A stretch of 64,000 bases of DNA, from positions 28,056-92,055 of IMG/VR virus record IMGVR_UViG_3300036766_002289; one strand, 5' to 3'. The number at the start of each line of letters is the position of its first letter. Positions within the stretch are counted from its first letter, which is position 1. The DNA comes from a virus. Positions 45,477 to 64,000 of the stretch are shown here, in pieces. The notes under the pieces are model-generated. The model had not been told where the DNA came from, searched no databases, and was given only the letters and a program-made list of their open reading frames with translations. A program made the position numbers and the translations under genes.

Positions 45477-45548
45477 GCCACTTTGGCAGAGCGGTTATGC
45501 ACTGGTTTTGTAAACCAGACAATCTGGGTTCGACTCCCAGAGGTGGCT
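45477..45548 (+). tRNA. tRNA-Thr(TGT), second diverged copy
   Basis: Acceptor GCCACTT/AGGTGGC, anticodon arm CTGGT-TTTGTAA-ACCAG, T-arm CTGGG-TTCGACT-CCCAG. Confidence 0.55.
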
Positions 45549-45551
45549 CTT

Positions 45552-46009: not shown

Positions 46010-46012
46010 GTC

Positions 46013-46372: not shown

Positions 46373-46385
46373 TATATAAGTGTAT

Positions 46386-46457
46386 GCGGCTGTAACTCAA
46401 TGGCAGAGTGCTGGTTTTCCAAGCCAGATGTTGTGGGTTCAAGTCCCATCAGCCGCT
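46386..46457 (+). tRNA. tRNA-Gly(TCC), second diverged copy
   Basis: Acceptor GCGGCTG/CAGCCGC, D-stem ACTC/GAGT, anticodon arm CTGGT-TTTCCAA-GCCAG, T-loop TTCAAGT. Confidence 0.55.
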
Positions 46458-46461
46458 CTGA

Positions 46462-46710
46462 ATGCGAAATCACTGGACAGATAAAAGTGCAATTAAGAGG
46501 TACATAGACCTTCTCGTTAAAGAGGTGGCCAGATTATGTACAGCGGATTACGATACCGTTAGAGAACTGCTTGAGCAAGAAATTGTTAAAAGGCCGTTTT
46601 CTCCAGAAGAAATAGATGAATTGGTTACTGCTAGTGACGACGATATTCTTATAGAAGCTGGAAGAATATACAGTTATCTAACTAAGTCCCAACGTAAAGG
46701 GGTATGGTAA
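46462..46710 (+). CDS. hypothetical protein
   Basis: ORF 82 aa. Confidence 0.4.
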   Translation: MRNHWTDKSAIKRYIDLLVKEVARLCTADYDTVRELLEQEIVKRPFSPEEIDELVTASDDDILIEAGRIYSYLTKSQRKGVW

Positions 46711-46851
46711 TGCCAGAAGGTAAAAGTCTTCTTCAAATTGCTTATATCTGCATAAGTATAATTGCCATTCTATGTGCAATGATATTATCTTGTGTTCTGC
46801 AAGATAAAGATATTTTTATATCTACCTCCATCGTTGTCGCATTTATTGGAT

Positions 46852-47340
46852 TTATGTCTTATATGGGCGATCTTTGGGATTGAGCTTATTCCATAATATC
46901 TTAACTGGCTTTTTGAAATAATGTCCGACAAATCCCCCTATTTGTTTCATGCCAAGTCTTTTTCTTATTGCATTTTCTAAATTTGTTGATTGACACTCGA
47001 CCCTGGTGGTTGAGAAGAACCATATGAATGTCATTGATGGCACAGCAATATACCAAGGTGCGTAAATTGGCAATATAAAGAATGAGCCTAATACCCCAAG
47101 AATTACTAGTATATGTAATGTGACAAGTGTATAAAAGCTAAACCATAGCCATAATGGTGCTGGCGGAATTGGTTTGTCAACGATTCTTCTTAAGCTTGAA
47201 AGGAATTTTTTGGTGATTTCATTATTACTCTTTTTACCGATTTCCTCATCAAGTTTGATGAGCAACTCGGTAAGTTTGTCTTCTGGCAGGTACGTTAATG
47301 CTAGTGCTACGATACGCGGAGAGTCATCGCTTGCTACCAT
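46852..47340 (-). CDS. membrane protein (minus strand)
   Basis: 162-aa ORF with three or four TM segments. Confidence 0.45.
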   Translation of the reverse strand: MVASDDSPRIVALALTYLPEDKLTELLIKLDEEIGKKSNNEITKKFLSSLRRIVDKPIPPAPLWLWFSFYTLVTLHILVILGVLGSFFILPIYAPWYIAVPSMTFIWFFSTTRVECQSTNLENAIRKRLGMKQIGGFVGHYFKKPVKILWNKLNPKDRPYKT

Positions 47341-47385
47341 CTTGGACTCCTTTCAACCTATATAGTAATATGACCTCACGGTTTT

Positions 47386-48189
47386 GTGCAACAGGAAATT
47401 GAAAAAAATATTATGAATAAGATTATCATTAAAAACGAGAAGCAAATAAGAGGTATTCGTAAAAGTTGTCAAATCGCAGCAGCAACTTTAGAATATGCTA
47501 AAAAATCTATTGCTGTAGGAATGACTACAGAAGAATTGGACAGGGCTATAGAAAACTTCATTAGGTCTAAGGGGGCGACTTCAGCGACATTAGAGTATAA
47601 AGGTTTTCATAAAGGTCAGCCAAAATTTCCAAAGAGTTGCTGTATTTCAGTAAATGAAGAAGTCTGTCATGCAATTCCAGATAGCTATATTATCAAAAAC
47701 GGAGACATAGTTAGTATAGATGTAGCTGTTATCTTGAATGGTTATTATGGTGATAATTGTACTACAGTTCCAGTTGGTAACATATCAGATGACGCCAGAC
47801 ATTTGATTGAGGTCGCTAAAAAATGCTTAGATTTAGGAATAAGACAAGTTGCTCCTGGTCGCAAAACTGGTGTGATTGGTCAAGCAATTTATCAATATGC
47901 AATTTTACAGGGCTGTACAATAGTAGAGGAATTTTGTGGTCATGGTGTAGGAATGGCTTTTCATGAACAACCACAAATTCTTCATGTTGCAAAACAAGAT
48001 GATGGTGATATAATGAAGCCTGGGATGATTTTCACCATAGAACCGATGGTCAATTTGGGCGGTCCTGAAGTAATAATGGATAATGATGACCAATGGACCG
48101 TTAGAACCGTGGACCAAAGTTTGTCGGCTCAATTTGAGCATTCGGTTCTGGTAACGACTAATGGATATGAAATACTAACTTTACCATGA
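47386..48189 (+). CDS. map: methionine aminopeptidase (type I)
   Basis: Conserved FCGHGVG, metal-ligand Asp/His/Glu context, overall MAP length. Confidence 0.8.
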   Translation: MQQEIEKNIMNKIIIKNEKQIRGIRKSCQIAAATLEYAKKSIAVGMTTEELDRAIENFIRSKGATSATLEYKGFHKGQPKFPKSCCISVNEEVCHAIPDSYIIKNGDIVSIDVAVILNGYYGDNCTTVPVGNISDDARHLIEVAKKCLDLGIRQVAPGRKTGVIGQAIYQYAILQGCTIVEEFCGHGVGMAFHEQPQILHVAKQDDGDIMKPGMIFTIEPMVNLGGPEVIMDNDDQWTVRTVDQSLSAQFEHSVLVTTNGYEILTLP

Positions 48190-48464
48190 TTTATTTTATA
48201 CTAATGGCCAACTGTTTGTCGATGGGTCTGGGGCTTTATCTCGCATTTGATGGACAATTTGTATTAAGCATCGTTTGTTTATTGATTTCATCAATAGGAT
48301 TTCGTCATCTTTGCATGGAAATTGATAAGCAGGCCCGAAGGAAGAAAAAAGAGAAGAGAATAAAACCAAAACTTGAAAAGTCGAAACCTAAAAAGGTGGA
48401 GAAGGTCAAGGAACAGATGAGTGTGGAAGCTCAACTTAGACTTAATAAGTTCTCCATTAACTAG
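48186..48464 (+). CDS. membrane protein with Lys-rich tail
   Basis: ORF 92 aa. Confidence 0.4.
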   Translation: MIYFILMANCLSMGLGLYLAFDGQFVLSIVCLLISSIGFRHLCMEIDKQARRKKKEKRIKPKLEKSKPKKVEKVKEQMSVEAQLRLNKFSIN

Positions 48465-48472
48465 GGGGCATT

Positions 48473-49231
48473 ATGTTAGAGATTATCGGCTCCGTCGCAA
48501 CTGTTTTGCTTATCATTTTGATTGTTGTCTCTCTTAAAAAGAGTGGCAAAATCGTTTTCATGGGCAGGTCTGAGAAAATAGATTTTGAAAAAGACATTAC
48601 TACCATTCCACCGATCCCCATATCTGCGGCCACTTGTAGCCATAGCTGGGATATAGTAGATGATAAATTGCTAGAAATGCCGCATGAGAAGAAGCATGTC
48701 CTGGTATTACAATGCCGTACTTGCGGAATGTTAGATAAGACTATGGCAGTGACTAGCACTGCGCCCAAACCGCTCCCACCCCCGCCGCTACCACCATGTA
48801 ATCATAGTTGGGTTGCAGTAACTGATAATACGCTTGATGTAGCACACGAAAAGAAAATTGTTGTTATCTTAACCTGCAAGAATTGTGGGGCTATAGAGAA
48901 GACTGTTGAGACCACTAGCAAAGCACCCCCGCCACCACAAGTTCCACTTCCAAAGGCTGAATGCCGCCATAAATGGGAAGTGGAAAAGAGAGTGTTGCTA
49001 GATTCTGCATACGAGCAAATGTTAGAGAGCATTAAGGTTAAGACAAGTTCTTATAGTAGTGCCAAAAAGGTTGACCCAAGTAAAGAATTAGATTTGGATT
49101 TAAATAAGGCACCAACTTGGATGTTTCAAAAGACTTATGTGTGTATCAGGGTTTGCACGTTATGTGGCGAGATTGATAAGACAATAGCTTCGAATTTTGA
49201 TAAAGAAGAAAACGAGGAGGAGATATCATGA
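48473..49231 (+). CDS. membrane-anchored protein with three internal C-x-H-x-W...C-x2-C-G repeats separated by Pro-rich linkers
   Basis: Repeats CSHSWDIV..CRTCG, CNHSWVAV..CKNCG, CRHKWEVE..CTLCGE. Confidence 0.5.
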   Translation: MLEIIGSVATVLLIILIVVSLKKSGKIVFMGRSEKIDFEKDITTIPPIPISAATCSHSWDIVDDKLLEMPHEKKHVLVLQCRTCGMLDKTMAVTSTAPKPLPPPPLPPCNHSWVAVTDNTLDVAHEKKIVVILTCKNCGAIEKTVETTSKAPPPPQVPLPKAECRHKWEVEKRVLLDSAYEQMLESIKVKTSSYSSAKKVDPSKELDLDLNKAPTWMFQKTYVCIRVCTLCGEIDKTIASNFDKEENEEEIS

Positions 49232-49406
49232 GCGAATTTACTTGGCCTTGGGAATGGGATTGGAATTGGCCTTTTGCCGCTATTTGTGGCGTTGGTCTGT
49301 TTGTCCTTGGAATCGTTCTACATCTTGTCTGTTTTCCTGGTATTGCTGCCATTATTATCGGCGGTGTAGTTGGTGCTTTTGCAGGAACTTATGAGTGGTT
49401 TGAACT

Positions 49407-49712
49407 ATGAAATCTCCATCAGTTTGCCCATGTTGCGGGCTTACTTGTTTCCAGGGACGGTTTAAGATATGTAAGAAAGAACATTGGGATTATCCTGATG
49501 ATGGTGCTGAAGTATGGTGCCAGTTTTGTAATACATGGTTTATGTGGAATGAAGAGAAACAGATTGCAAAAGTGATAGAGACCGCATTCCCGCGTGGCCA
49601 TAGGGGTAATAAGGGTGAGATTGTCGGCAAGCCGATTAAAGTTTTAGCAACGGCTGAATGGGATATGGTGTCGCAACAAAGAACCGACCAAGAAGACCTT
49701 ATCTGGGAGTAA
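49407..49712 (+). CDS. Cys-rich hypothetical protein
   Basis: CPCCG..C...CQFCN. Confidence 0.4.
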   Translation: MKSPSVCPCCGLTCFQGRFKICKKEHWDYPDDGAEVWCQFCNTWFMWNEEKQIAKVIETAFPRGHRGNKGEIVGKPIKVLATAEWDMVSQQRTDQEDLIWE

Positions 49713-49715
49713 ACT

Positions 49716-50060
49716 ATGAGTACGTTCAGTAGAGATATGGGTGAGTGTGTTTTGTACACGTTACTTAATCTTTCAGATGATAAAAATAACAATGATGGTC
49801 TACCGACCGAAATGGCTGGTTGGGTGAAAGAAAAAATTGAAGCTTTTGTTGTAAGTCCATACTCAGACATGGAGTTATATGATTTTCTTGATAGCGTAGC
49901 GAGGATTCCAATTGAAAGATTTGGTGGTGGTTGCGTAGGAGATATTAGTGGATTCATCCAGGCAGCGTGTGATGTTAAAAAATGTTATGACCGTCCCGAA
50001 GATGGTGATAAGAAGTTTCTTGATAAGGAAGAATGTAGGAAAAAATTGGAGAAAAGATGA
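49716..50060 (+). CDS. hypothetical protein
   Basis: ORF 114 aa. Confidence 0.4.
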   Translation: MSTFSRDMGECVLYTLLNLSDDKNNNDGLPTEMAGWVKEKIEAFVVSPYSDMELYDFLDSVARIPIERFGGGCVGDISGFIQAACDVKKCYDRPEDGDKKFLDKEECRKKLEKR

Positions 50061-50485
50061 CAGGCATATTTGGATTTTTTGAAGAATACAGGTTCCTTTC
50101 TAACTTTTACCCAGCCAAAGTTGAGTTCGATGGTCTGGAGTACAGTTCCACCGAACACGCATACCAAGCCGCTAAAACGGATGACCCTGCTGAAAGACGT
50201 AGAATCAGGGAAACCCAGAAATTTGGCGAAGCTAAGAGATTAGGAAAAAAAGTCAAGATACGTCCTGATTGGGAAAAGGTTAAGTTCGAAGTAATGGAGG
50301 ACTTAGTAAGACAGAAGTTTACTAAGCATAAAGAGTTAAAGGAAAAGCTCTTGGAAACAGGCGACCAATACTTAGAAGAGACAAACACTTGGGGCGATAA
50401 AATTTGGGGAGTCTGCAAAGGTGTAGGGCAGAATCATCTTGGGAAAATCCTAATGAAAATTAGGGGAGAATTAAGAAATGAGTGA
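50057..50485 (+). CDS. NADAR (YbiA/DUF1768) domain protein
   Basis: FLSNFYPA..F.G..YSSTEHAYQAAK signature. Confidence 0.6.
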   Translation: MTGIFGFFEEYRFLSNFYPAKVEFDGLEYSSTEHAYQAAKTDDPAERRRIRETQKFGEAKRLGKKVKIRPDWEKVKFEVMEDLVRQKFTKHKELKEKLLETGDQYLEETNTWGDKIWGVCKGVGQNHLGKILMKIRGELRNE

Positions 50486-50768
50486 TATTCAAACAGGGAT
50501 TCGCTATACTATTCAACGACAGGGATTTAGTTATGATGAAGAAGAAAGGGAATGGACAACTTGTTATCATGAGGGTAACTTGATTGACACTCCAGACCGT
50601 GAATGGATTGCAGCTATGATGGAGTTTTTATCTAAAACAGAAAGAAAATCTTATCGTTTCCGTATATTGAAAATTGAGACGAGTGTTATAGGCATGGACA
50701 CGATTAGGGAAGCAATTATTGCGGACCTTGTTAAGTCTGCATATGGGGATCAATCTAAGCCCCATTAA
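50478..50768 (+). CDS. hypothetical protein
   Basis: ORF 96 aa. Confidence 0.4.
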   Translation: MSDIQTGIRYTIQRQGFSYDEEEREWTTCYHEGNLIDTPDREWIAAMMEFLSKTERKSYRFRILKIETSVIGMDTIREAIIADLVKSAYGDQSKPH

Positions 50769-51081
50769 GAAAATCTTTATACCTGTCTTTAAGCTCTTGA
50801 TAGTTTTTCTTTTTTTGGGTGCCCTGTCGGAATAGGCAAAGAATAATTGTACTAAAGAAATTGTAGGCTTTGCCTTTTTCTCTGTCATATCTTGGCAGTT
50901 TGTCGAAACAAATCATGACTGCTTCTTGGATATAGTCATCTCGGTCGGTGAGTATTTTCTTAATGTCTAAACCATTAACTATTCGCTCTGCGACCCAATA
51001 AAAAGCTTCGCAGAGCTTGTCTTCACTTATTTTATTATCTAAAAAATCAGAAACTGCTTGTTCAAATTCTGAAGCATTCAT
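50755..51081 (-). CDS. minimal sigma-factor-like protein (sigma70 region 2 only; T4 gp55-like)
   Basis: IQEAVMICFDKLPRYDREKGKAYNFFSTIILCLFRQ resembles sigma70 region 2.1-2.2; minus strand. Confidence 0.45.
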   Translation of the reverse strand: MNASEFEQAVSDFLDNKISEDKLCEAFYWVAERIVNGLDIKKILTDRDDYIQEAVMICFDKLPRYDREKGKAYNFFSTIILCLFRQGTQKKKNYQELKDRYKDFLNGA

Positions 51082-51461
51082 GAATTAAGATAGTGCGATA
51101 ATATCTTTAATTACTTTTTCTAGTAATTTTTCCTTTTTAGCTTCGTCTACATTGTATAGTAAACCATTGAGTTTAGTGACCCACTGTTCAAGTTGGTTGA
51201 CGATTAATGCATCATCTTGACTTGTCGTCAAATCCACATTGTTATTGGTGAGGGCGGCAATCTCCTCAGTCTTATTCTGTGTGAGCCATTCGTTAAATTT
51301 CATACTTTATTTATATTAACCATATATATTTTAATGAAGAATTATTGGCTAGATCGAAGAAAAGAGAAAAAAGAAAGTAAAAGCTGGAATGTAGCCGATT
51401 TTAATCGGATTCTTTTGAATAAAATGAGGCAAGCTCAATTGAACAAAATAAGAAAAAAACC

Positions 51462-51884
51462 TTAGATGAATATAATTGCGGCTGCAATAGTATTAAAGTA
51501 AAGAGTGCCTTTTAGACCAATAGCCGTGTTGTTTTCATGCATATTTTCCTGAACATCTATATTATGATACATGATTTCTAGGAATATTTTCTTCTGCCAG
51601 AGTGGTTCTCTTGCTGTAGCCATTAGTTTTTGCAACATTCCGTTAATATGTTCTTTGTTCTTAGCGACGGCAGAACCTTTAGCCTCAAGGTTCATTTGCA
51701 GTCCTTGCGTAGCTCTTTCTTCAGTAATTAAATCGAATTTTAAGTCATTAATGCCGAATCCATTGATTTTTGGGATTTGACTCAATGATTGGTTAATAAC
51801 AATCTGAATTTCTCTCATGGCTTCTTTGCCTTCTGGAGAGATGTTTTCTACCAACCTATTCTCGATGTATTGCTGAAAGTCCAT
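51462..51884 (-). CDS. hypothetical protein (minus strand)
   Basis: ORF 140 aa. Confidence 0.45.
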   Translation of the reverse strand: MDFQQYIENRLVENISPEGKEAMREIQIVINQSLSQIPKINGFGINDLKFDLITEERATQGLQMNLEAKGSAVAKNKEHINGMLQKLMATAREPLWQKKIFLEIMYHNIDVQENMHENNTAIGLKGTLYFNTIAAAIIFI

Positions 51885-51934
51885 ATTAGTTATATACTAT
51901 TGACGCAGTGCATTTTTTTTGCTACTATTGGGGA

Positions 51935-52825
51935 ATGAGCAATATCTATGAAACAAATGTACCTAATTTTGTTTGCAAACGGGGCAAGGTACGGGACACT
52001 TATGCCTATGGTGATACGATGTTAATCATCGTAACTACCGATAGAATAAGTGCTTTTGATTGGGTATTTCCAAATACCACAATTCGAGATAAAGGAAAAA
52101 TTCTTCAAGGTATATCATCTTATTGGGCTGATGCTTTGAATTTAAGGTATCATGAGATCAATACTGACTTGAACCATCTGCCAGAAGATTTTAGAAAACC
52201 AGAATTTGAAGGCAGGGCAATGTTGGTGGAAAAAGCGGATGTTATCCCTTTTGAATGCGTGGTTCGTGGATACTTAGCTGGTTCAGCATGGAAAGAATAC
52301 AAGCAAACAGGTGAAGTTTGCGGTATTAAGTTGCCAAGCGGTCTTAAAGAAAATCAACATCTTATAAAGCCACTTTTTACACCCGCTACTAAAGCAGAAT
52401 CAGGGCACGATCAAAATGTAACTTTTGACTATATGGCAGGTAAGATTGGTCTTGACTTAGCCGCCGAACTAGAATCTTTGAGTTTGGATATTTATTCAGA
52501 AGCATCCCAGATAGCCTGGAATCGTGGTATCATAATAGCCGATACTAAGTTCGAATTTGGTGTATTGCCACATTCTAGCAATGTATTGATACTGATAGAC
52601 GAAGTTTTAACACCCGATAGCTCTCGTTTCTGGCCATTAGAAGATTATAAATTAGATGGGCCTATTAACTCATTCGATAAACAATTTGTGCGTGATTTCA
52701 TAGAGCAATCAGGGTGGGATAAGAATAGTCCCCCACCAGCATTACCAGAAGACGTTATAATGAAGACTAGGGACAAATACTTAGAAGCTTATGAAAAAAT
52801 AACGGGGCACAGTTTATGCAAATAA
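51935..52825 (+). CDS. purC: phosphoribosylaminoimidazole-succinocarboxamide (SAICAR) synthase
   Basis: TTDRISAFD motif and overall similarity; ATG 51935 chosen over the listed GTG 51908. Confidence 0.8.
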   Translation: MSNIYETNVPNFVCKRGKVRDTYAYGDTMLIIVTTDRISAFDWVFPNTTIRDKGKILQGISSYWADALNLRYHEINTDLNHLPEDFRKPEFEGRAMLVEKADVIPFECVVRGYLAGSAWKEYKQTGEVCGIKLPSGLKENQHLIKPLFTPATKAESGHDQNVTFDYMAGKIGLDLAAELESLSLDIYSEASQIAWNRGIIIADTKFEFGVLPHSSNVLILIDEVLTPDSSRFWPLEDYKLDGPINSFDKQFVRDFIEQSGWDKNSPPPALPEDVIMKTRDKYLEAYEKITGHSLCK

Positions 52826-53050
52826 AAGAATTAGTCCAGAAAATGGAAATCACTGATATCCTCTGTGATATTTGTGATAAAAGTTGTTACCATGAAAATG
52901 GATATACCCCAGAATATGTGTGCATAGATCAGAGTTGGGGTTATTCTTCTAATAAAGATGGCACTAGAACACAATGCGATATTTGTGAAAGCTGTTTTGA
53001 TAAAGTTAAAGACTTTATAGTGAATACTTTAAAAGGAAAGGTAAGAGAAG

Positions 53051-53329
53051 ATGTTCATATGTAATTTTTGTAAGAAATCGGTTCCATGTAGGACACCTTG
53101 TAAGAAAGTAGTTATTCAGACTGTGATGTATCATCATCCACATCGACCAAAGGTGCATCGTAAATGGATATTGGACAAGCAAGGTAAGCCCAGACTTGAT
53201 TGGTTAGATGATAAGGGCGGAATTGGTCCGCAAATCGCTGTTGAAGTCCCAGCATGTCCAACCTGTGGCTTGGAACAAGAACTTAAGAGAGAAAAAAGAG
53301 AAACTGAACAATTGAGGCTTATAGGATGA
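53051..53329 (+). CDS. Cys-rich hypothetical protein
   Basis: CNFC..C...CPTCG. Confidence 0.4.
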   Translation: MFICNFCKKSVPCRTPCKKVVIQTVMYHHPHRPKVHRKWILDKQGKPRLDWLDDKGGIGPQIAVEVPACPTCGLEQELKREKRETEQLRLIG

Positions 53330-53468
53330 AAAGTGCTAGAGAAATCGCTGAACATATAGCCTATGTGTTTAATGATTACACTGATTATGACGCAGAATCA
53401 GCAGAGGAGTTTGTTGTAGAAGTCACTTCCATTATAGAAGATTATGTTAAAGACATAAAGGGTGAAAA

Positions 53469-53726
53469 ATGCAAAAAGAAGCAAAAGGAATAGAAGGTTT
53501 TCTTTTAATTTACCCAGATTTTTCGACTGCCGAACCCACTGGTGAAAAAAATAGGTTTGGCCAAGAAAGAGTTAAGTGCAAGGATACAATTGTAGTATTT
53601 CGTGTATACGAAAAACCTGGCACGGGCTTTAAAGATTATGATATTCGTCACCCTGATTTGAAGATTAAGTTGTTAGATGGGGTTTTATACGAAACTGAAG
53701 AAGGAAATTACATTGATTATGAGTGA
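53469..53726 (+). CDS. hypothetical protein
   Basis: ORF 85 aa. Confidence 0.4.
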   Translation: MQKEAKGIEGFLLIYPDFSTAEPTGEKNRFGQERVKCKDTIVVFRVYEKPGTGFKDYDIRHPDLKIKLLDGVLYETEEGNYIDYE

Positions 53727-54054
53727 TAATCCTAATAAACTAAAAGCGATTCTTTTAGAGGCCGCCGACACCGAGACACAAAAGCAATTTGCTAAGATGC
53801 TTGCGGAGCAATGTGCAGTTGCCGACCGTGAAGCTAAGGATCATTATGATTGGTTCTTCATTCCTTCCCCAACAGAATACGAACGTATGAAGAAGTATAA
53901 TCAGGCTCCAGATTATGATAAATGCCCTAAATGCGGTAAAGGTCGTATTATTATAGAGAAACGAACTTGGCCTTTAGGAGATAGTCTTACTCTTAAGTGC
54001 AGATGGAGTGGTGGCGGTTGTGATTTCTCAGAACTAATTTCGGATGATTTATAA
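53677..54054 (+). CDS. hypothetical protein with C-terminal Zn ribbon
   Basis: CPKCG...C..GGGC. Confidence 0.4.
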   Translation: MGFYTKLKKEITLIMSDNPNKLKAILLEAADTETQKQFAKMLAEQCAVADREAKDHYDWFFIPSPTEYERMKKYNQAPDYDKCPKCGKGRIIIEKRTWPLGDSLTLKCRWSGGGCDFSELISDDL

Positions 54055-54485
54055 TGAAAAGTTGGCAGGAACAGTGTGCTGAAATCATTAGTTTCCTAGA
54101 AGACATTTTCAAAGAAACAAAATATCGTATTGTTTTCAGAAAATATGAGACTGACCAAAAAGAAGATGAATGGTTATTCTTTGTTGAATCAATACGTGGC
54201 GATGGTGGACGCCATGATGGGACTGCGATTACATGGGTGAGTGTTGGTGGCAAAAACATAGAAGAATTGCCTGGTTTGTTGCTTCTGAAAGCACAACAAC
54301 GTGTTAATGAATGGCAGCAAGAAGGTCTAAAAGAAGTGGAAAAGAAAGCTTTAGAATTAGAGAAAGCTAAGAATGAACTAGACAAAAGACTAAACACTAA
54401 GATGGATAGTCTTGCAAAGAGAGTGAACAATGGATGTAAAGCAAGTGATTGTGATTCGCCGCGACCTGAAAATGCGGAGGGGTAA
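54054..54485 (+). CDS. hypothetical coiled-coil protein
   Basis: ORF 143 aa. Confidence 0.45.
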   Translation: MKSWQEQCAEIISFLEDIFKETKYRIVFRKYETDQKEDEWLFFVESIRGDGGRHDGTAITWVSVGGKNIEELPGLLLLKAQQRVNEWQQEGLKEVEKKALELEKAKNELDKRLNTKMDSLAKRVNNGCKASDCDSPRPENAEG

Positions 54486-54846
54486 GGAATGTAGCCAAGC
54501 TGCACATGCAGCTATGATATGGCTAACTAGTAGAATTAGAACCAAACCAAATTGGATCATAAGATTCTTTCTATGGCTTTTTAGACGAACTGCCGCAATA
54601 CGTTTATCTACGGAAGAACAAGAATGGATTGATGGGTCTTTTACTAAAATCACTTTACAAGTGGATAGTCAAGATGAGTTGCTGAGATATTACACTATGG
54701 CTAAGTCGAAAGGTTTAACAGTAAGTTTGGTTACAGATGCAGGTAAAACAGAATTTAATGGCGTACCTACTTTCACTGCGATAGCTATTGGACCCCATGA
54801 AGCTTCTAGGATAGATGAAGTAACAAGAAGTTTAAAACTTTATTAA
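54430..54846 (+). CDS. peptidyl-tRNA hydrolase, PTH2 family
   Basis: VIVIRRDLKMRRGKECSQAAHAA matches the PTH2 N-terminal signature. Confidence 0.6.
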   Translation: MDVKQVIVIRRDLKMRRGKECSQAAHAAMIWLTSRIRTKPNWIIRFFLWLFRRTAAIRLSTEEQEWIDGSFTKITLQVDSQDELLRYYTMAKSKGLTVSLVTDAGKTEFNGVPTFTAIAIGPHEASRIDEVTRSLKLY

Positions 54847-55529
54847 GGACGAGAATGGACGAAATTATAGATACTGATGTTATAATCGCTATAATTGTAG
54901 GCATTGTTGTCGTGTTGTTTCTTCTGATTAGCATCATATTCGACTTATTTGACTAATGGTTCCTGACGTAGACATAAAATATGATCCAAGATTCTCTTTA
55001 GAAGAGAATTGGGTGTGTTGTACTACTGCTATTCAGGAGGCACAGGAAAGAGGTGTGTTGGTAACACCTTTAACTGTGTTTAATGATGAAGGCAAAATCG
55101 TTGGTTGGTACTTACATGGTTGGGAGCCACCTCCCGTTTTTTACACGTATCGACCACCCATGTAGTGTAGCAGTCTTCTGTGCAAAAAGTCCTATCTACT
55201 TCTGGTATTAGTTTTGGCATTTTCATTTCTTTTTGACACCCAAAACATATTAACTTGGTGGTCTCGGACATATAAATCCTTTCACTTTCATAGTTTTGTG
55301 TTGTATTACAGGGAAGTTGTTAGGTGGCCCACAAGTCACTTGAGCGATAATTGCTGGTTGTGGGAATTCCATAGCTACCACTTCAAAACATGCTCTAGCA
55401 GTATTGGGTTTACTGCAATCACATGGATTAGGTACTACCTGCCGTTCATTTCCACCAATTGGTAGATGACCGATTGAGCCGCCGCCGATTTTCATCTGTT
55501 TTATTTATCCAGTATGCTTAAATAATGGT

Positions 55530-58500
55530 GTGCAAGAGGTATTATATGACCGCATCGAAGTAACTTCCACGACCACGGGGTTAGGTGCGTTTGTTCTGCT
55601 GGGCGCGACCCCTGGCAATAGGCCATTCTCCATAGTTCCAGATGGAGATTCTATACCTTATTGTATAACCAATAATATCGACTATGAAATGGGTCTTGGA
55701 ACCGTCTCAGCAGGCGGCTCGATCCTTAGTAGAGACAAAGTTCTATCTAGCACCGCTGGTGGCGCGTTCATTAATTGGCCAGCAGGAACAAAAGAAGTAT
55801 TCCTAACAGCTACTTCAGACTTATTAACGCAAATAAATGTAGAATCTACACTAATCACCAGAGAAATGATTTCTGGTGGTCGTGCTGTTAATGTCAATAC
55901 ATCAGGATTAGCACAAATTGCTATGGCTGGCGATCCTACAAGAATGCCAGCCATTGGTGTAATGATAGACAACACCCTTTCTGGGCAACCAGCCAGAATT
56001 TATACCCGTTCACATCTATATTCAGATAAATTTAGTTATTCTGGCTATATTGGTTCTGAACTTTGGGTAGGAACTTCTGGTGATATAGTAACATCTGGTG
56101 GGATATCAGGCAATGTCCAGCAAATATTAGGCGTTGTAATCGCTCAATCTGGAATTTATTTGTCTCCTTCATTCCAAGTTCCTGGTACAACATTTAGTTT
56201 AACCTCTGGCATCATTACATCTGGGTTTATAGGCGATAATGCTGTCAATAGCGGCAACATTTCTAGTGGGCAAGTTGGCCAGTTTCACCTTGCTTCAGGT
56301 GCGGTTAATTCAGGGCATATTAGTAGCGGTGCAGTACAAGGTTTCTTTGGTAGCACAAGACACATAGCTTCAGGCACACTTGGCGTGTTTGATTTCGGCT
56401 CTGGCGCAGTAATAGCTGGTGCTGTTGGCTCAGGCGCAATTGTATCAGGAAATATAGCGTCAGGTCAAGTTGGCCAATTCCATATATCCTCTGGTGCCGT
56501 AACAAGTGGTAGATTAGGCGTTACTGGAACCCCAGACGGTACTAAGTTCTTAAGAGACGACTTCACATGGGCCACTCCAACTGTTGTAAGCGGTGCAATT
56601 CAATCAGGCATGATTGCTTCAGGTGCAGTCCAAGGCTTTTTTGGAAGTACAAGGAATATTGCTTCAGGAACAGTAGGTGTATTTGATTTTGGTAGTGGTG
56701 CAGTTATAGCAGGAACAGTTGGCAGTGGTGCAATTGTAAGTGGAAACATCGCTTCAGGTCAAGTCGGTCAATTCCATCTAGCGAGTGGTGCAGTTAATTC
56801 GGGTCACATAGGAAATAATGCTGTTGTAAGTGGTTCCATTGCATCTGGCCAGGTAAATACATATCACTTCGGTTCTGGAGCAACCGTTACAAGGGCACAA
56901 TTTGTCGCTCCATTTGTAAGCGGTACCCCTTGGACCGTAACTACAGAAGAAACCATATCTGGTGTAAGAGCAGTTGCATTTAGCCAAAGTGGTAATCTAG
57001 TAATTGCTATGGCAGGTGTTTCTGGTCGTGGCCCTGCAATAGGCATTGTAGTTGATAATGTTGCAAGTGGTACTCAAGCTAATGTTTATACTGTTGGGCC
57101 GCTACAATTTACTAGCGGCTTAGGTGATTATAGTGGTTATTTGGGTCAACCATTATACGTTGGACGTTCAGGACAAATTGTAACTGCGAGCGGTAGCTTC
57201 AATAGTGGTGGCTTCTTATCTGGTGATACGTTCCAGCAAATAGGTTATGCTTGGACTAGTGGTGGTGCCTTAATTGGCGTAAATGACCCTGTAATCAGCG
57301 GCGGCGTCCCATCATTAACTTCTGGCTTAGTACAATCTGGCAACATAGCATCTGGTGCAGTCCAGGGATTCTTTGGCAGCACAAGAAACATAGCTTCTGG
57401 TACAGTCGGCGTCTTCGATTTTGGTTCAGGCGCAGTTATAGCTGGGACAGTTGGCTCAGGTGCAATTGTAAGCGGAAACATCGCAAGCGGTCAAATAGGT
57501 CAGTTTCACATTGCAAGTGGTGCAGTTAATTCAGGTCATATAGGTAACAACGCAGTTGTATCAGGCTCAATTGCTTCTGGGCAGATCGGACAATTCCACA
57601 TTGCAAGTGGTGCAGTTAATTCTGGCCATATAGCATCAGGTGCCGTACAAGGTTTTTTTGGTTCAACAAGAAACATAGCAAGTGGTACTATAGGCGTTTT
57701 CGATTTCGGGTCTGGTGCTGTTATAGCAGGAACCGTTGGTAGTGGTGCAATTGTAAGTGGAAATATTGCTTCGGGTCAAGTCGGCCAGTTCCATATTTCT
57801 TCTGGTGCTGTAACAAGCGGCAGATTAGGAGTGACAGGAACACCAGACGGAACTAGATTCTTAAGAGACGATTTTGTTTGGGCTACTCCTACCGCAGCAG
57901 GTGTTACTAGCGGTGGCATTCAATCAGGTATGATTGCATCTGGCGCAGTCCAGGGCTTCTTTGGCTCAACAAGACACATAGCTTCGGGCACAGTAGGTGT
58001 ATTTGATTTTGGTTCAGGCGCAGTTATAGCTGGGACCGTTGGCAGTGGCGCAATTGTAAGTGGTAACATAGCAAGTGGTCAAATAGGTCAATTCCATCTT
58101 GCAAGCGGGGCTGTTAATTCAGGGCATATTGGCAACAACGCAGTCGTAAGTGGCTCAGTTGCAAGTGGTCAGTTATCAACATATCATTTCGGTTCTGGTG
58201 CAACGGTCACTAGGGCACAGTTTGTTTCGCCGTTCGTTAGCGGTACATCTTGGACAGCAATTACGGAAGAAACTATATCTGGTGTTCGTGCAGTTGCATT
58301 TAGTCAAAGCGGTAATTTAAGAATCGCAATGGCTAGCGTTTCGGGCAGAGGACCAGCCATTGGTGTAGTTATAGATAATGTTCTAAGCGGTTTACAGGCT
58401 AATGTTTATACTGTTGGTGCAGTCCAATTTACTAGTGGTTTAGGTGATTATAGTGGTTACATTGGTCAGCCATTATACGTAGGACGTTCAGGACAAGTTG

Positions 58501-61500
58501 TTACTGCGAGCGGTAGCTTCAACAGTGGCGGGTTCTTGTCTGGGGAAATGCTACAACAAATTGGTGTGGCATGGACAAGTGGTGGAGCATTAATTGGTGT
58601 GAATGACCCAATTGTTAGTGGTAGCGTTCCAGCATTAACTTCTGGTCTAGTCCAGTCTGGAAACATAGCATCTGGCGCAGTCCAAGGCTTTTTTGGAAGT
58701 ACAAGAAATATAGCTTCAGGCACAGTCGGTGTATTTGATTTTGGTTCAGGCGCAGTTATAGCAGGAACCGTTGGTAGTGGTGCAATTGTAAGTGGTAATA
58801 TAGCTTCAGGCCAAATTGGTCAATTCCACCTTGCATCTGGCTCAGTAACAAGTGGTGCAATTGCAAGTGGACAAGTAGGCCAGTTTGCTCATTCTTCTGG
58901 TGCAATTAATTCAGGACATGTATCTTCTGGTGCCGTTCAAGGTTTCTTTGGCTCAACAAGACACATAGCTTCAGGCACAATAGGCGTATTTGATTTCGGC
59001 TCAGGCGCAGTTATAGCAGGAACCGTTGGCAGTGGAGCAATTGTAAGTGGTAATATAGCTTCAGGTCAAGTTGGTAATTTTGCCATATCTTCTGGCGCAG
59101 TAACAAGTGGGCGATTAGGCGTCACAGGAACCCCAGATGGAACTAAGTTTTTAAGGGATGACTTTACTTGGTCCAGCCCAATTATAAGTGGCAGCATTCA
59201 ATCAGGCATGATTGCTTCAGGTGCAGTGCAAGGCTTCTTTGGAAGTACGAGAAATATTGCTTCAGGCACTGTAGGCGTGTTTGATTTTGGTTCGGGTGCA
59301 GTTATAGCTGGGACCGTTGGCAGTGGCGCAATTGTAAGTGGAAATATTGCTTCAGGCCAAATTGGTCAATTCCACCTTGCAAGTGGTGCAGTTAATTCGG
59401 GTCATATAGGTAATAATGCAGTTGTAAGCGGTTCAGTTGCCAGTGGCCAACTTTCAATATATCATTTCGCATCAGGAGCAACAGTCACAAGGGCACAGTT
59501 CGTTGCTCCATTTGTAAGTGGTACATCTTGGACAGTAATTACAGAAGAAACCATATCTGGTGTAAGAGCAGTTGCATTTAGCCAAAGTGGCACACTTAGA
59601 GTTGCAATGGCCAGTATTTCTGGTCGATATCCAGCAATCGGTGTCGTTGTAGACAACGTTCTAAGTGGTTTACAGGCCAACGTTTACACTGTTGGCCCAT
59701 TGCAGTTTACTAGTGGTTTAGGCGATTATAGTGGTTATTTGGGTCAACCACTATATGTTGGTCGTTCAGGACAAGTTGTAACCGCGAGCGGTAGTTTCAA
59801 TAGCGGTGGATTATTGTCTGGCGATATGACCCAGCAAATAGGTTTTGCTTGGACAAGCGGTGGCGCACTCATAGAAGTAAATGCACCATTTGTAAGTGGT
59901 GGTGTCCCAGCATTAACAAGTGGCTTAGTCCAATCTGGTAACATAGCATCAGGTGCAGTACAAGGTTTCTTCGGCTCTACTAGGAATATTGCAAGTGGAA
60001 CCGTAGGCGTCTTCGATTTTGGTTCAGGCGCAGTTATAGCAGGGACCGTTGGCAGCGGTGCAATTGTAAGTGGAAACATCGCTTCAGGTCAGATAGGTCA
60101 ATTCCACTTGGCTTCTGGTTCAGTAACAAGTGGTGCAATAGCAAGTGGACAAGTAGGCCAGTTTGCTCATTCAAGTGGCAGTGTAACGAGTGGTGCAATA
60201 GCTTCAGGTCAAGTTGGTCAATTTGCTCATTCTTCTGGCGCAATTAATAGTGGTCATGTTTCAAGTGGTGCGGTCCAGGGCTTCTTTGGCTCAACAAGAC
60301 ACATCGCTTCAGGCACAGTAGGCGTATTTGATTTTGGTAGTGGTGCAGTAATAGCAGGAACCGTTGGTAGCGGTGCAATTGTAAGCGGTAATATAGCAAG
60401 TGGTCAAGTAGGACAGTTCCACCTATCATCAGGCAGTGTAACTTCAGGTGCCATTTCAAGTGGTGTTGTAGGTCAGTTTGCACTTTCAAGTGGCTCAGTA
60501 ACAAGCGGTGCGATTTCAAGTGGTCAAGTAAATACTTATCATTTCGGCAGTGGTGCAACTGTCACTAGGGCACAATTCGTCGCTCCATTTGTAAGTGGTA
60601 CATCTTGGACAGTAATTACAGAAGAAATAATTTCAGGTGTAAGAGCAGTTGCATTAAGCCAAAGCGGTACTTTAAGGGTCGCTATGGCCAGTATTTCTGG
60701 TCGATACCCAGCAATCGGTGTGGTCGTAGACAACGTTCTAAGCGGTTTACAAGCTAATGTATACACTGTAGGACCGCTCCAGTTTACAAGCGGGTTGGGT
60801 GATTATAGTGGTTATTTGGGTCAACCATTATATGTTGGTCGTTCAGGACAAGTTGTTACTTCAAGCGGCAGCTTCAATAGTGGTGGATTGCTTTCTGGTG
60901 ATATGACCCAGCAAATAGGTTACGCCTGGACTAGTGGCGGTGCCTTAATAGAGGTCAATGCACCATTTGTAAGTGGTAGTGTTCCGTCATTAACAAGTGG
61001 TTTAGTCCAGAGTGGCAATATTGCTAGTGGTGCCGTACAAGGCTTCTTCGGAAGTACGAGAAACATAGCTTCAGGCACAGTAGGTGTATTTGATTTTGGT
61101 TCTGGTGCAGTTATAGCAGGAACAGTTGGTTCAGGTGCAATTGTAAGCGGAAATATAGCTTCAGGCCAAATTGGTCAATTCCACCTTGCAAGTGGCAGTG
61201 TAACTTCAGGTGCAATAGCAAGTGGACAAGTAGGCCAGTTCGCCCTTTCAAGTGGTTCAGTAACGAGTGGTGCAATAGCTTCAGGTCAAGTAGGACAATT
61301 TGCTCATTCTTCTGGCGCAATTAATAGTGGTCATGTTTCAAGTGGCGCAGTCCAGGGCTTCTTTGGCTCGACAAGACATATAGCAAGTGGTACTGTAGGC
61401 GTGTTTGATTTTGGTTCAGGTGCAGTTATAGCAGGAACAGTTGGCAGTGGAGCAATTGTAAGCGGTAATATAGCTTCAGGCCAAGTAGGACAATTTCATC

Positions 61501-62978
61501 TATCATCAGGCAGTGTAACTTCAGGTGCTATATCTTCGGGTGTTGTAGGCCAATTTGCACTAAGTTCTGGCTCAGTAACGAGTGGTGCAATATCATCTGG
61601 TCAAGTAAACACTTACCATTTTGGTTCTGGAGCAACAGTAACTAGGGCACAATTTGTTGCTCCATTTGTGAGTGGAACATCTTGGACAATAATTACAGAA
61701 GAAACTATATCAGGCGTAAAAGCAGTAGCACTAAGCCAGAGTGGCACACTTAGAGTTGCAATGGCCAGTATTTCTGGTCGATATCCAGCAATCGGTGTCG
61801 TTGTAGACAACGTTCTAAGTGGTTTACAAGCTAATGTATACACTGTTGGTCCGCTCCAGTTTACTAGCGGGTTAGGCGATTATAGTGGTTACATTGGTCA
61901 GCCATTGTATGTTGGTCGTTCAGGACAAGTTGTAACAAGCTCTGGCAGCTTCAACAGTGGTGGATTGTTGTCTGGCGATATGACCCAGCAAATAGGTTTT
62001 GCTTGGACAAGTGGCGGCGCACTCATAGAGGTTAATGCCCCATTTGTAAGCGGTGGAACTCCAACTTTAACATCAGGTATAGTCCAAAGTGGCAACATCG
62101 GTTCGGGTGCAGTCCAAGGCTTCTTTGGCAGTACACGTAACATAGCTTCAGGCACAGTCGGTGTATTTGACTTTGGTTCAGGTGCAGTTATAGCAGGAAC
62201 AGTTGGTAGCGGTGCAATTGTAAGCGGAAACATTGCAAGTGGTCAGATTGGTCAATTCCACTTGGCTTCTGGTTCAGTAACTTCAGGTGCAATAGCAAGT
62301 GGACAAGTAGGCCAGTTTGCTCTAAGTTCAGGCTCTGTAACAAGTGGTGCAATTGCTTCTGGGCAGATAAGTCAGTTTAAGTTAGCATCAGGTGCGGTTA
62401 ATAGTGGCCATATTGGTTCTGGTGCAGTCCAAGGCTTTTTTGGCTCAACAAGACACATCGCTTCAGGCACAGTGGGCGTATTTGATTTTGGTAGTGGTGC
62501 AGTAATAGCAGGAACAGTTGGGTCTGGTGCAATTGTAAGTGGAAATGTCGCAAGTGGTCAAATAGCAGATTTCCATTTTGCATCTGGTGCAAAAATAAAC
62601 GTGGCGGGTTGGATCACTGATACAGCATTGGTTGCAGGTACGCCAATTTCTGGCAGCTGTGCAGTTTCTGTTGACGCAAGTGGCCACCTAATTCAAAGTA
62701 ACCCAACACTATCTGGTCAGTTCCCAATTTATGGCATTGCAGACGGGGCACTTGTGTCTGGTTCTGCTGGTATTATAAGATTAATGGGACCATTTACATC
62801 TACAGAGTTTAACTTCTCTGGCAGTATCGGTAGAGTTTTGTATGTCGGTTTAAGTGGTCAAATAACCCCAACAATGCCTTCACTATCTGGTGTCTTTACA
62901 CAGAAAGTTGGCATTGCAACTAGCCATTCTGGTATGTTGGTTAGAATAGATAACCAATTCATACAAATTGGCTTATAA
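55530..62978 (+). CDS. giant repeat protein (2482 aa), putative tail fibre/adhesin
   Basis: Single ORF; five or more tandem units of about 360-440 aa, each built from about 60-aa SGAVQGFFGSTRNIASGTVGVFDFGSGAVIAGTVGSGAIVSGNIASGQ subrepeats; unique N- and C-terminal domains. Confidence 0.8.
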   Translation: MQEVLYDRIEVTSTTTGLGAFVLLGATPGNRPFSIVPDGDSIPYCITNNIDYEMGLGTVSAGGSILSRDKVLSSTAGGAFINWPAGTKEVFLTATSDLLTQINVESTLITREMISGGRAVNVNTSGLAQIAMAGDPTRMPAIGVMIDNTLSGQPARIYTRSHLYSDKFSYSGYIGSELWVGTSGDIVTSGGISGNVQQILGVVIAQSGIYLSPSFQVPGTTFSLTSGIITSGFIGDNAVNSGNISSGQVGQFHLASGAVNSGHISSGAVQGFFGSTRHIASGTLGVFDFGSGAVIAGAVGSGAIVSGNIASGQVGQFHISSGAVTSGRLGVTGTPDGTKFLRDDFTWATPTVVSGAIQSGMIASGAVQGFFGSTRNIASGTVGVFDFGSGAVIAGTVGSGAIVSGNIASGQVGQFHLASGAVNSGHIGNNAVVSGSIASGQVNTYHFGSGATVTRAQFVAPFVSGTPWTVTTEETISGVRAVAFSQSGNLVIAMAGVSGRGPAIGIVVDNVASGTQANVYTVGPLQFTSGLGDYSGYLGQPLYVGRSGQIVTASGSFNSGGFLSGDTFQQIGYAWTSGGALIGVNDPVISGGVPSLTSGLVQSGNIASGAVQGFFGSTRNIASGTVGVFDFGSGAVIAGTVGSGAIVSGNIASGQIGQFHIASGAVNSGHIGNNAVVSGSIASGQIGQFHIASGAVNSGHIASGAVQGFFGSTRNIASGTIGVFDFGSGAVIAGTVGSGAIVSGNIASGQVGQFHISSGAVTSGRLGVTGTPDGTRFLRDDFVWATPTAAGVTSGGIQSGMIASGAVQGFFGSTRHIASGTVGVFDFGSGAVIAGTVGSGAIVSGNIASGQIGQFHLASGAVNSGHIGNNAVVSGSVASGQLSTYHFGSGATVTRAQFVSPFVSGTSWTAITEETISGVRAVAFSQSGNLRIAMASVSGRGPAIGVVIDNVLSGLQANVYTVGAVQFTSGLGDYSGYIGQPLYVGRSGQVVTASGSFNSGGFLSGEMLQQIGVAWTSGGALIGVNDPIVSGSVPALTSGLVQSGNIASGAVQGFFGSTRNIASGTVGVFDFGSGAVIAGTVGSGAIVSGNIASGQIGQFHLASGSVTSGAIASGQVGQFAHSSGAINSGHVSSGAVQGFFGSTRHIASGTIGVFDFGSGAVIAGTVGSGAIVSGNIASGQVGNFAISSGAVTSGRLGVTGTPDGTKFLRDDFTWSSPIISGSIQSGMIASGAVQGFFGSTRNIASGTVGVFDFGSGAVIAGTVGSGAIVSGNIASGQIGQFHLASGAVNSGHIGNNAVVSGSVASGQLSIYHFASGATVTRAQFVAPFVSGTSWTVITEETISGVRAVAFSQSGTLRVAMASISGRYPAIGVVVDNVLSGLQANVYTVGPLQFTSGLGDYSGYLGQPLYVGRSGQVVTASGSFNSGGLLSGDMTQQIGFAWTSGGALIEVNAPFVSGGVPALTSGLVQSGNIASGAVQGFFGSTRNIASGTVGVFDFGSGAVIAGTVGSGAIVSGNIASGQIGQFHLASGSVTSGAIASGQVGQFAHSSGSVTSGAIASGQVGQFAHSSGAINSGHVSSGAVQGFFGSTRHIASGTVGVFDFGSGAVIAGTVGSGAIVSGNIASGQVGQFHLSSGSVTSGAISSGVVGQFALSSGSVTSGAISSGQVNTYHFGSGATVTRAQFVAPFVSGTSWTVITEEIISGVRAVALSQSGTLRVAMASISGRYPAIGVVVDNVLSGLQANVYTVGPLQFTSGLGDYSGYLGQPLYVGRSGQVVTSSGSFNSGGLLSGDMTQQIGYAWTSGGALIEVNAPFVSGSVPSLTSGLVQSGNIASGAVQGFFGSTRNIASGTVGVFDFGSGAVIAGTVGSGAIVSGNIASGQIGQFHLASGSVTSGAIASGQVGQFALSSGSVTSGAIASGQVGQFAHSSGAINSGHVSSGAVQGFFGSTRHIASGTVGVFDFGSGAVIAGTVGSGAIVSGNIASGQVGQFHLSSGSVTSGAISSGVVGQFALSSGSVTSGAISSGQVNTYHFGSGATVTRAQFVAPFVSGTSWTIITEETISGVKAVALSQSGTLRVAMASISGRYPAIGVVVDNVLSGLQANVYTVGPLQFTSGLGDYSGYIGQPLYVGRSGQVVTSSGSFNSGGLLSGDMTQQIGFAWTSGGALIEVNAPFVSGGTPTLTSGIVQSGNIGSGAVQGFFGSTRNIASGTVGVFDFGSGAVIAGTVGSGAIVSGNIASGQIGQFHLASGSVTSGAIASGQVGQFALSSGSVTSGAIASGQISQFKLASGAVNSGHIGSGAVQGFFGSTRHIASGTVGVFDFGSGAVIAGTVGSGAIVSGNVASGQIADFHFASGAKINVAGWITDTALVAGTPISGSCAVSVDASGHLIQSNPTLSGQFPIYGIADGALVSGSAGIIRLMGPFTSTEFNFSGSIGRVLYVGLSGQITPTMPSLSGVFTQKVGIATSHSGMLVRIDNQFIQIGL
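56918..62750 (+). repeat. tandem 1.1-1.3 kb DNA repeats inside the giant gene (about 85-95% identical)
   Basis: Unit landmarks at about 56918, 58238, 59515, 60592 and 61671. Confidence 0.7.
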
Positions 62979-63050
62979 ATCTTATTAACTCCTTATTAAC
63001 ACAGTCTTTTTAATCTGGAATAAATCAGACGCATATTATAAATATGGTAT

Positions 63051-64000
63051 ATGGGAGTGCCCTTAGTATTCGACACCAGCACAGGTATAACCACAGCAAG
63101 ACCATTTATAGCTAGTGATAATGTTTTTGCGTCGGGGGTTGTTGCGTCTGGTGTTATAGCGTCAGGTGCAGTCCAAGGCTTCTTTGGCACTACTAGAAAC
63201 ATAGCTTCAGGTACATTAGGCGTATTTGATTTCGGTTCTGGTGCAGTTATAGCTGGGGCTGTTGGCAGTGGCGCAATTGTAAGTGGAAATATAGCTTCAG
63301 GTCAGATCGGTCAATTCCATATCGCCTCTGGTGCAGTAACAAGTGGCAGACTAGGAGTTACGGGCACTCCAGACGGTACTAAATTCCTAAGAGACGACTT
63401 CACATGGTCCAGTCCAATTATAAGTGGCTCTATTCAATCAGGCATGATAGCAAGTGGTGCTGTACAAGGTTTCTTCGGTTCTACTAGAAATATAGCAAGT
63501 GGAACCGTAGGCGTATTTGATTTTGGCAGTGGTGCAGTAATAGCAGGAACAGTCGGCAGTGGGGCAATTGTAAGTGGAAATGTTGCTTCAGGTCAGATTG
63601 GTCAAGCCCATTTGGCTTCTGGTATTATCGCTGTGTTTACCGATTCGGTTAGTGCTGCGAAGGGCAATGTTGCCGCTGGTCCTGGCGTGAATGCAATAAG
63701 TGGGTCGCGAAATACAGCATTTGGATATACGGTTCTCAATAATTCACGAGGCAGCAGCGGTAATACTGGTTTTGGATTCCAATCCTTGTTTGCTTGCAGT
63801 AGCGGATGGTATAACACCGCTATCGGTGCGACTGCATTAGTCAACTTTCAATGGGGTAGTGGTAATGTTGCTGTTGGGGCGGGGGCCATTGGGCCAATAG
63901 ATGGAACATTTGGCATGTCAGGTGCCTCGAGTGCAATATCATTTAATACAGCTATTGGTCAACAAGCTGGGACTCATATAAGTAGCGGGGCACTTAATAA
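63051..64000 (+). CDS. second repeat protein (partial, continues beyond the window), Hep_Hag-like C-terminal repeats
   Basis: ATG 63051; same subrepeats, then NTAIGATAL..GSGNVAVGAGA periodic motif; open at window end. Confidence 0.6.
   Translation, partial: MGVPLVFDTSTGITTARPFIASDNVFASGVVASGVIASGAVQGFFGTTRNIASGTLGVFDFGSGAVIAGAVGSGAIVSGNIASGQIGQFHIASGAVTSGRLGVTGTPDGTKFLRDDFTWSSPIISGSIQSGMIASGAVQGFFGSTRNIASGTVGVFDFGSGAVIAGTVGSGAIVSGNVASGQIGQAHLASGIIAVFTDSVSAAKGNVAAGPGVNAISGSRNTAFGYTVLNNSRGSSGNTGFGFQSLFACSSGWYNTAIGATALVNFQWGSGNVAVGAGAIGPIDGTFGMSGASSAISFNTAIGQQAGTHISSGALN

Follow-up and report, generated by a model that had tools for sequence, protein, structure and literature searches.

What do two adjacent giant repeat genes of a phage encode, and does their repetition make the locus unstable? 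The question is raised by positions 55530-64000 of a 64,000-nucleotide (nt) stretch, referred to here as the window, which corresponds to positions 28,056 to 92,055 of IMG/VR virus record IMGVR_UViG_3300036766_002289. The original prediction, made from the letters of the window, had proposed two adjacent giant fibre-type repeat proteins, and this proved sound: gene 1 encodes 2482 amino acids (aa) and is followed by a second gene that starts at 63051. The gene 1 protein is probably a virion fibre, likely trimeric, which consists of covalently concatenated globular domains (beads) and is attached either close to the head-tail junction or to the tail. This reading is preferred because the bead is homologous to the neck-fibre beads gp81 and gp82C of the Anabaena myophage A-1(L), because the N-terminal domain is homologous to the N-termini of tail-module fibres in cultured phages, and because the structure database BFVD places the bead fold in long fibre-like proteins and relatives lie downstream of portal genes.

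Gene 1 is a single open reading frame (ORF) on the plus strand (55530-62978) with a GTG start codon. Its product is 100% identical to a database protein (P0001) encoded on a 590,099-bp JGI contig; it matches PHROGs 13518 (unknown function) and 892 (tail fiber), and a Pfam search at E≤1 gave no family. The protein opens with a predicted β-barrel, the N-terminal anchor domain (NTD; aa 1-99, 55530-55826), followed directly by a divergent copy of the bead (bead 0; aa 100-214, 55827-56171; 68-129 bits with the bead hidden Markov model, HMM). Five tandem units of 1077-1320 nt come next, with copy spacings of 1320, 1278, 1077, and 1077 nt; with borders set at an LTSG[IL] motif, the units measure 372, 440, 426, 359, and 359 aa. 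Each unit is an uninterrupted run of pentads (hydrophobic-x-S-G-x), the stalk, followed by an all-β bead of ~146 aa. Unit 1 (aa 224-595, 56199-57314) has one TPDGTKFLRDDFTW motif in its stalk, a motif present in three stalks, and its bead lies at 56877-57314. Unit 2 (aa 596-1035, 57315-58634) ends in bead 2 (58197-58634), and unit 3 (aa 1036-1461, 58635-59912) in bead 3 (59475-59912), the copy used for modelling. Unit 4 (aa 1462-1820, 59913-60989) has a 213-aa stalk with an unbroken pentad register and bead 4 at 60552-60989; unit 5 (aa 1821-2179, 60990-62066) has a stalk and bead 5 at 61629-62066. The C-terminal part (aa 2180-2482, 62067-62975) adds one further stalk and then, up to the stop codon, a terminal bead of divergent sequence (aa 2355-2482, 62592-62975; 36-99 bits with the bead HMM). 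The protein has seven beads: one proximal divergent, five canonical, and one terminal divergent. All of these features are on the plus strand. Unique terminal domains had been expected at both ends; aa 1-99 are indeed distinct, but the globular domain recurs in divergent form at aa 100-214 and 2355-2482.

The bead was modelled with AlphaFold2 (AF2) from an alignment of 41 copies drawn from the gene 1 protein and its relatives. The model is all-β (pLDDT 78, pTM 0.71) and has the β-tulip fold, a fold family described in (PMC7602432). Its structural matches, with scores in brackets, are Adjutor gp16 (10.5), the HFTV1 capsid stabilisation protein (9.9), YSD1_16 (9.4), Patience gp22 (9.3), the Pam3 cement protein (8.8), the phi29 head-fibre base gp8.5 (8.0), a C-terminal fragment of phi29 gp12 (6.7), lambda gpD (5.6), and herpesvirus triplex proteins (3.2-5.3). 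By sequence, the sole solved structure found is that of the A-1(L) neck-fibre protein gp82, within residues 126-238 (gp82C; E 1.7e-4). The bead profile matches A-1(L) gp81 better than gp82 (37.5 bits, E 1.5e-8; hhalign probability 92.9%). A Foldseek search of BFVD found the fold within many viral proteins of 450-1360 aa named tail fibre-like, collagen-repeat, or intramolecular-chaperone proteins, and also in small minor capsid proteins. One bead compared by tblastn with 50,697 cultured-phage records gave no match. An exhaustive search with the bead profile returned 1291 cluster representatives at E≤1e-3, 158 of them at E≤1e-30; they span single-domain proteins (137-300 aa) at one end and nine-bead proteins at the other. 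A fold and a likely role can thereby be given to a protein family without a Pfam model, to which some of the largest genes of uncultured phages belong.

A different role is suggested by the same structural matches, namely that of a capsid decoration or head-fibre protein, in which one or several beads would bind three-fold or quasi-three-fold sites of the very large capsid in the manner of lambda gpD and phi29 gp8.5, with the stalks projecting from the capsid or lacing between sites. The modelled bead does resemble the cement proteins (lambda gpD, PF09956, phi29 gp8.5) in its β-tulip fold. At the sequence level, 14 of the 41 bead copies have matches to PF09956 (Phage_cement_2; best E 3.7e-4), all below the gathering threshold (copy 1 scores 14.8 bits against the 24 required), so that no copy reaches it, and one copy matches PF02924 (HDPD) at E 0.071. 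Cement proteins are small and encoded in the head module, whereas the gene 1 protein is a giant multi-bead fibre with an anchor of the tail-fibre type. Membership of the β-tulip cement proteins was rejected on the sub-threshold scores, the 2482-aa multidomain architecture, and the lack of an adjacent capsid gene. A decoration role is unlikely, given that the protein opens with a domain common to tail-module fibre proteins, that its nearest solved relative by sequence is a neck-fibre bead and not a cement protein, that the fold occurs in BFVD mostly within long fibre-like proteins, and that no family member examined adjoins a major capsid gene (in the window or in the relatives' contigs L002, L005, and L008). 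The decoration-protein fold appears to be widely reused as a fibre node; labels such as 'head decoration' or 'tail fibre' assigned from fold alone are therefore unsafe.

The anchor domain provides the second line of evidence. It stands at the start of at least 13 family members, and by tblastn it is 34-47% identical over aa 1-93 or 13-103 to the N-termini of cultured-phage proteins that are mostly annotated as tail fibres. The matches are Roseobacter phage CRP-6 gp61 (120 bits with the NTD HMM), Pelagibacter phage HTVC023P, Methylophilales phage Venkman gp58, Azospirillum phage Cd, and Cronobacter phage Ss1 orf11 (60 bits). Gene order in CRP-6 runs from terminase and portal through a 123-aa gene to the NTD-bearing fibre; in Ss1 and Venkman the capsid gene and two small tail genes precede the NTD-bearing gene. 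The arrangement of NTD plus bead recurs in six database proteins (P0006, P0053, P0065, P0090, P0094, and P0055). Searches of the PDB sequences with phmmer gave chance-level matches for the NTD. A docking partner common to these systems was sought among the small proteins encoded next to the portal in L002, L005, and CRP-6 and among the neighbouring Laminin_G_3 proteins, and homologues of these candidates were sought in the window; none was found. Ss1 orf10 and Venkman gp60 matched one another and nothing else. In AF2 modelling of aa 1-600 (10-sequence alignment; overall pLDDT 37.5), the NTD was the one usable part.

Between beads, the stalks hold their register over 35-59 uninterrupted pentads (175-294 aa). 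Hydrophobic residues autocorrelate at each multiple of five (0.35-0.46), and the 213-residue stalk of unit 5 keeps one register from end to end with no shift. The subrepeats of about 60 aa that had been proposed are replaced by a base period of 5 aa, a super-period of 20 aa (60 nt), and modules of ~85-105 aa with an AVQGFFGSTR marker. The protein consists of 18.7% Gly, 14.7% Ser, 10.8% Val, and 10.1% Ala, a composition that accounts for the rise in GC content from 0.38 to 0.45 over the region. It is the stalk that matches PHROGs 13518 and 892, and its tblastn matches are to Gly/Ser-rich stretches in the tail fibres of cyanopodoviruses and to entries named 'host specificity protein J'. Comparison with PDB sequences by phmmer yielded no solved relative, all matches being at chance level.

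Stalk repeats of this kind are found in the Gly/Ser-repeat tail fibres of marine and freshwater podo- and siphoviruses (PHROG 892; P-GSP1, P-SSP2/3, S-TIP37, DSS3_VP1, whose entry is a 'host specificity protein J', and CRP-6 gp61). Those fibres are 300-900 aa long, against 2482 aa for the gene 1 protein, and CRP-6 gp61 shares the NTD but has no detected beads; the size, the five super-units of ~360-440 aa, and the regular alternation with beads are specific to the gene 1 family. A second resemblance is to the pentapeptide-repeat proteins (PF00805), which form a right-handed quadrilateral β-helix and share the five-residue period, the hydrophobic residue at every fifth position, and the 20-residue super-period. 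The stalk consensus is hydrophobic-x-S-G-x, not A(D/N)LXX. Membership of this family was rejected on that difference, on the lack of any Pfam match at E≤1 (pentapeptide families included), and on the failure of AF2 to produce a monomeric solenoid.

Gene 2 starts with ATG at 63051 on the plus strand and runs past the window end, so that positions 63051-64000 hold 316 of its 1428 codons. The full-length protein is database entry P0007, 1428 aa, likewise on a JGI contig of 590,099 bp. It consists of two stalk modules, a unique segment of ~180 aa, more stalk, two beads (aa 579-720 and 882-1009), and a unique C-terminal domain of ~420 aa, with the beads and C-terminal domain beyond the window; it has no NTD. 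The expectation that this gene reuses the repeat modules of gene 1 was borne out; a 41-residue core of those modules occurs twice in its window part. No Hep_Hag or adhesin-like periodicity, which had also been proposed, was found: Pfam gave no match to the window part at E≤1 or to the full protein at E≤0.01, and four NTAxG copies in the unique segment are irregularly spaced at 34-44 aa (autocorrelation ≤0.13). YadA-like adhesin repeats were accordingly rejected, there being neither a Pfam match nor a regular 7- or 14-residue repeat. The full-length protein matches no PHROG family, and its C-terminal domain has no tblastn match in the 50,697 phage records; a related-locus search with P0007 found relatives at 32-33% identity.

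The system that most resembles this pair is the neck fibre of A-1(L), in which a gp82 trimer sits with its N-domain on the neck and supplies the first bead with its C-domain, ~14 gp81 trimers follow head to tail, and gp80 is distal; five such bead chains of ~100 nm are present (PMC10966104; PDB 8KEG). Like gp82, the gene 1 protein begins with an anchor domain and a first bead, followed by a chain of repeated beads that are homologous by sequence to gp81 and gp82C, and, as with gp80, the adjacent downstream gene has a different distal end domain. The A-1(L) beads are separate small proteins that polymerise non-covalently, whereas here seven beads are fused in a 2482-aa chain; A-1(L) lacks pentad stalks, whereas gene 1 has stalk spacers of 175-294 aa; and the genomes differ in size, at 68 kb and ~590 kb. 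The same β-tulip module thus appears to have taken two routes to a beaded fibre, non-covalent polymerisation and gene-encoded concatenation.

The domain anatomy, bead fold, homologies, and DNA divergence are results of the analysis; the trimeric state, the attachment site, the pairing of the two gene products, and any binding function are inferred, as follows. Both genes would encode structural fibres built as a covalent chain of beads. The β-barrel NTD, a type also found in the tail fibres of cultured podoviruses, is the probable means by which the fibre is attached to the virion, in the vicinity of the portal, neck, or tail. The gene 1 protein would most likely be a parallel homotrimer, by analogy with the A-1(L) neck-fibre trimers, with the β-tulip beads serving as trimerisation and register nodes between the repetitive pentad stalks. 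The gene 2 protein may attach to the last bead of the gene 1 protein, as gp81 and gp80 dock on gp82C, and would then make up the distal, perhaps ligand-binding, portion of the fibre; or it may instead be a second fibre in its own right. A bolder version of this scheme is rather doubtful: genes 1 and 2 would together form a single composite fibre, its length well above 100 nm, with bead number and length encoded in the gene and not set by polymerisation as in A-1(L); the pentad stalk would be a new, obligately oligomeric fold clamped in register by β-tulips; and the nearly random codon choice between protein-identical units, serine TCN/AGY switches included, would stem from selection for dissimilar DNA as a safeguard against recombinational collapse.

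Several observations weigh against a fibre anchored at the neck or tail. In structure the bead best matches capsid cement proteins, and a head location must therefore be kept in view. The A-1(L) anchor gp82N is unrelated to the NTD, and no anchor of that type is present in gene 1, so that neck attachment, which is known for A-1(L), is not transferable to gene 1. The genes directly upstream of gene 1 are non-structural (a peptidyl-tRNA hydrolase and small unknown ORFs). Finally, AF2 modelling of the stalk as a monomer gave a pLDDT of ~30 (10 sequences) and no monomeric solenoid; this failure is compatible with a stalk that is obligately oligomeric, but the alignment was shallow. The virion-fibre reading nevertheless has the bead homology, the anchor homology, and the BFVD distribution in its favour. 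Taken singly, Gly/Ser-repeat fibres, the principle of the bead chain, and the bead fold were already known; the combination of seven fused beads, strict pentad stalks, a podovirus-type anchor, a ~590-kb phage, and codon-diverged units is undescribed in the searchable literature.

The second part of the question concerns the repeats as DNA. Five or more near-identical units had been predicted; five tandem units are present, but near-identity holds only for the protein. Pairs of units are 79-97.5% identical in aa and 71-83% identical in nt, with a proportion of synonymous differences (pS) of 0.45-0.65. Direct-repeat analysis found the five long copies at 74-83% identity together with many shorter repeats whose spacings are multiples of 15 nt. 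Tandem Repeats Finder, run on the region with a maximum period of 500, found nothing, owing to that period limit and to a region free of short-period DNA arrays. The two most similar units, 4 and 5, are 97.5% identical in aa and 82.6% in nt. Their stalks (213 aa) differ at one residue and have 81.4% nt identity, with 17 of 42 conserved serines switched between TCN and AGY codons; their beads (146 aa) differ at eight residues and have 84.5% nt identity, with 2 of 18 conserved serines switched. In these stalks (within 59913-62066), serine codon switching is roughly as close to random as ordinary synonymous change is. At residues conserved between units, codons are identical in 49-66% of cases, against ~40% for a random draw from the gene's own usage. 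The 41-residue core (AVQGFFGSTRxIASGTxGVFDFGSGAVIAGxVGSGAIVSGN), present in 14 copies in gene 1, has four variable columns only, yet its nt identity averages 82%. Judged from the sequences, the unit copies appear old, or at least strongly diverged as DNA, and purifying selection very strong. Protein identity of 99.5% against DNA identity of 81% over 213 residues is a clean natural case for the study of genetic stability in repeat proteins.

These values bear on the proposal that the locus is a contingency locus, at which long near-identical DNA repeats recombine often, expanding and contracting the array and altering unit number, fibre length, or host range. With 71-83% nt identity and a longest exact direct repeat of 89 nt in 55530-64000, the copies are not near-identical DNA repeats, and codons at conserved residues have moved ~55-85% of the way to random, with a change of codon class at the 17 serines noted above. 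Nine pairs of exact repeats of 40-89 nt do persist, and in 90-nt windows local patches reach 96-99% nt identity between units, which suggests occasional gene conversion. Relatives also differ widely, from one to nine beads and from 347 to 2482 aa or more, and by comparison of their sequences unit number has clearly been changed by duplication and loss over evolutionary time. Frequent change is another matter: among 5.8 billion proteins no near-identical variant with another unit number was found, the next match being 46% identical. Family genes from independent assemblies, 15 in all, have longest internal exact repeats of 17-143 nt, a comparison biased by the failure of short-read assembly to recover long perfect repeats. 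A contingency locus is, on balance, quite improbable.

The original prediction had named a short-read assembly artefact as what would refute it. Repetitive genes are classic trouble spots, in which an assembler may expand, collapse, or chimerically join repeats, and one homologue of the family (on contig L008, described below) has a probable frameshift. In gene 1 the frame is intact across 7.4 kb, the units are distinguishable because about one nt in five differs and exact identity extends over 89 nt at most, synonymous changes make up the great bulk of the differences between units, a signature of real selection, and independent assemblies of relatives show the same architecture. An artefact is therefore a very remote prospect.

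The antisense ORFs of the region had been regarded as frame shadows of the repeats, and this is upheld by two of them (59744-60079 and 61898-62233), which encode 111 aa each and lie 2154 nt apart; as this offset is exactly twice the 1077-nt unit, they are shadows. Within the two genes, about 20 promoter-like sites (T/CTGA/GCC, 18 nt, TACAAT) occur on the minus strand between 56439 and 63596. They occupy repeat-equivalent positions and are most likely by-products of the coding repeat.

Relatives of gene 1 show how the family is organised elsewhere. In contigs of 141 kb and 93 kb, two of them (P0009 and P0003) are encoded downstream of a portal gene, at a distance of one to three genes, with Laminin_G_3 proteins and further bead-bearing fibre genes close by; the relatives that adjoin portal genes in L002 and L005 are without the NTD. 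The final bead ends within ~25 residues of the C-terminus in most of the multi-bead relatives that were examined. On IMG/VR contigs of 43-225 kb (L009-L015) giant fibre genes occur in tandem pairs or triplets and encode up to 2956 aa; the sets include 745 + 1983 aa, 820 + 2064 aa with 2157 aa upstream, and 1409 + 2956 aa, and the listed pair members each have a C-terminal bead and none has the NTD. A Laminin_G_3 (concanavalin-like) gene adjoins a bead-chain gene in three independent contigs, L002 (14358-15497), L005 (9232-9993), and L008 (5427-6317); no homologue of that protein was found in the window. In L008, the gene for the homologue P0006 (6377-11317) contains, in another frame of the same strand, a bead domain at 10332-11162 (plus strand; 97.8 bits), which points to a probable frameshift near its 3' end, either a sequencing error or real.

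The window itself is part of a huge-phage genome (~590 kb), an assignment based on its 39 tRNA genes, DNA ligase, PTH2 peptidyl-tRNA hydrolase, and DNA methylase. Its sizeable ORFs are all on the plus strand, save a few shorter ones on the minus strand, and megablast of 40000-55500 against phages gave no match. The tRNA genes, all on the plus strand between 8345 and 46458 and many of them duplicated (three each of Pro-tgg, Gly-tcc, and Asn-gtt), form a very large island that is typical of huge phages. The ATP-dependent DNA ligase (25490-26596) shares 68% identity with part of LR756511.1, the genome of an uncultured phage (595 kb, unannotated), with the next best matches (~40%) in alphaproteobacterial phages. 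PTH2 (54430-54846; Pfam E 6.5e-30) lies ~0.7 kb upstream of gene 1 and, together with the tRNA genes, suggests that the phage intervenes in translation. Also present are a purC-like SAICAR synthase (PHROG 1112; 51908-52825) and the N6/N4 DNA methylase (44273-45049; Pfam E 3.7e-27). Two adjacent ORFs of ~313 aa (3297-4238 and 4246-5193) have no Pfam match, and the first weakly matches a 'tail fiber assembly' PHROG (E 4.5e-8).

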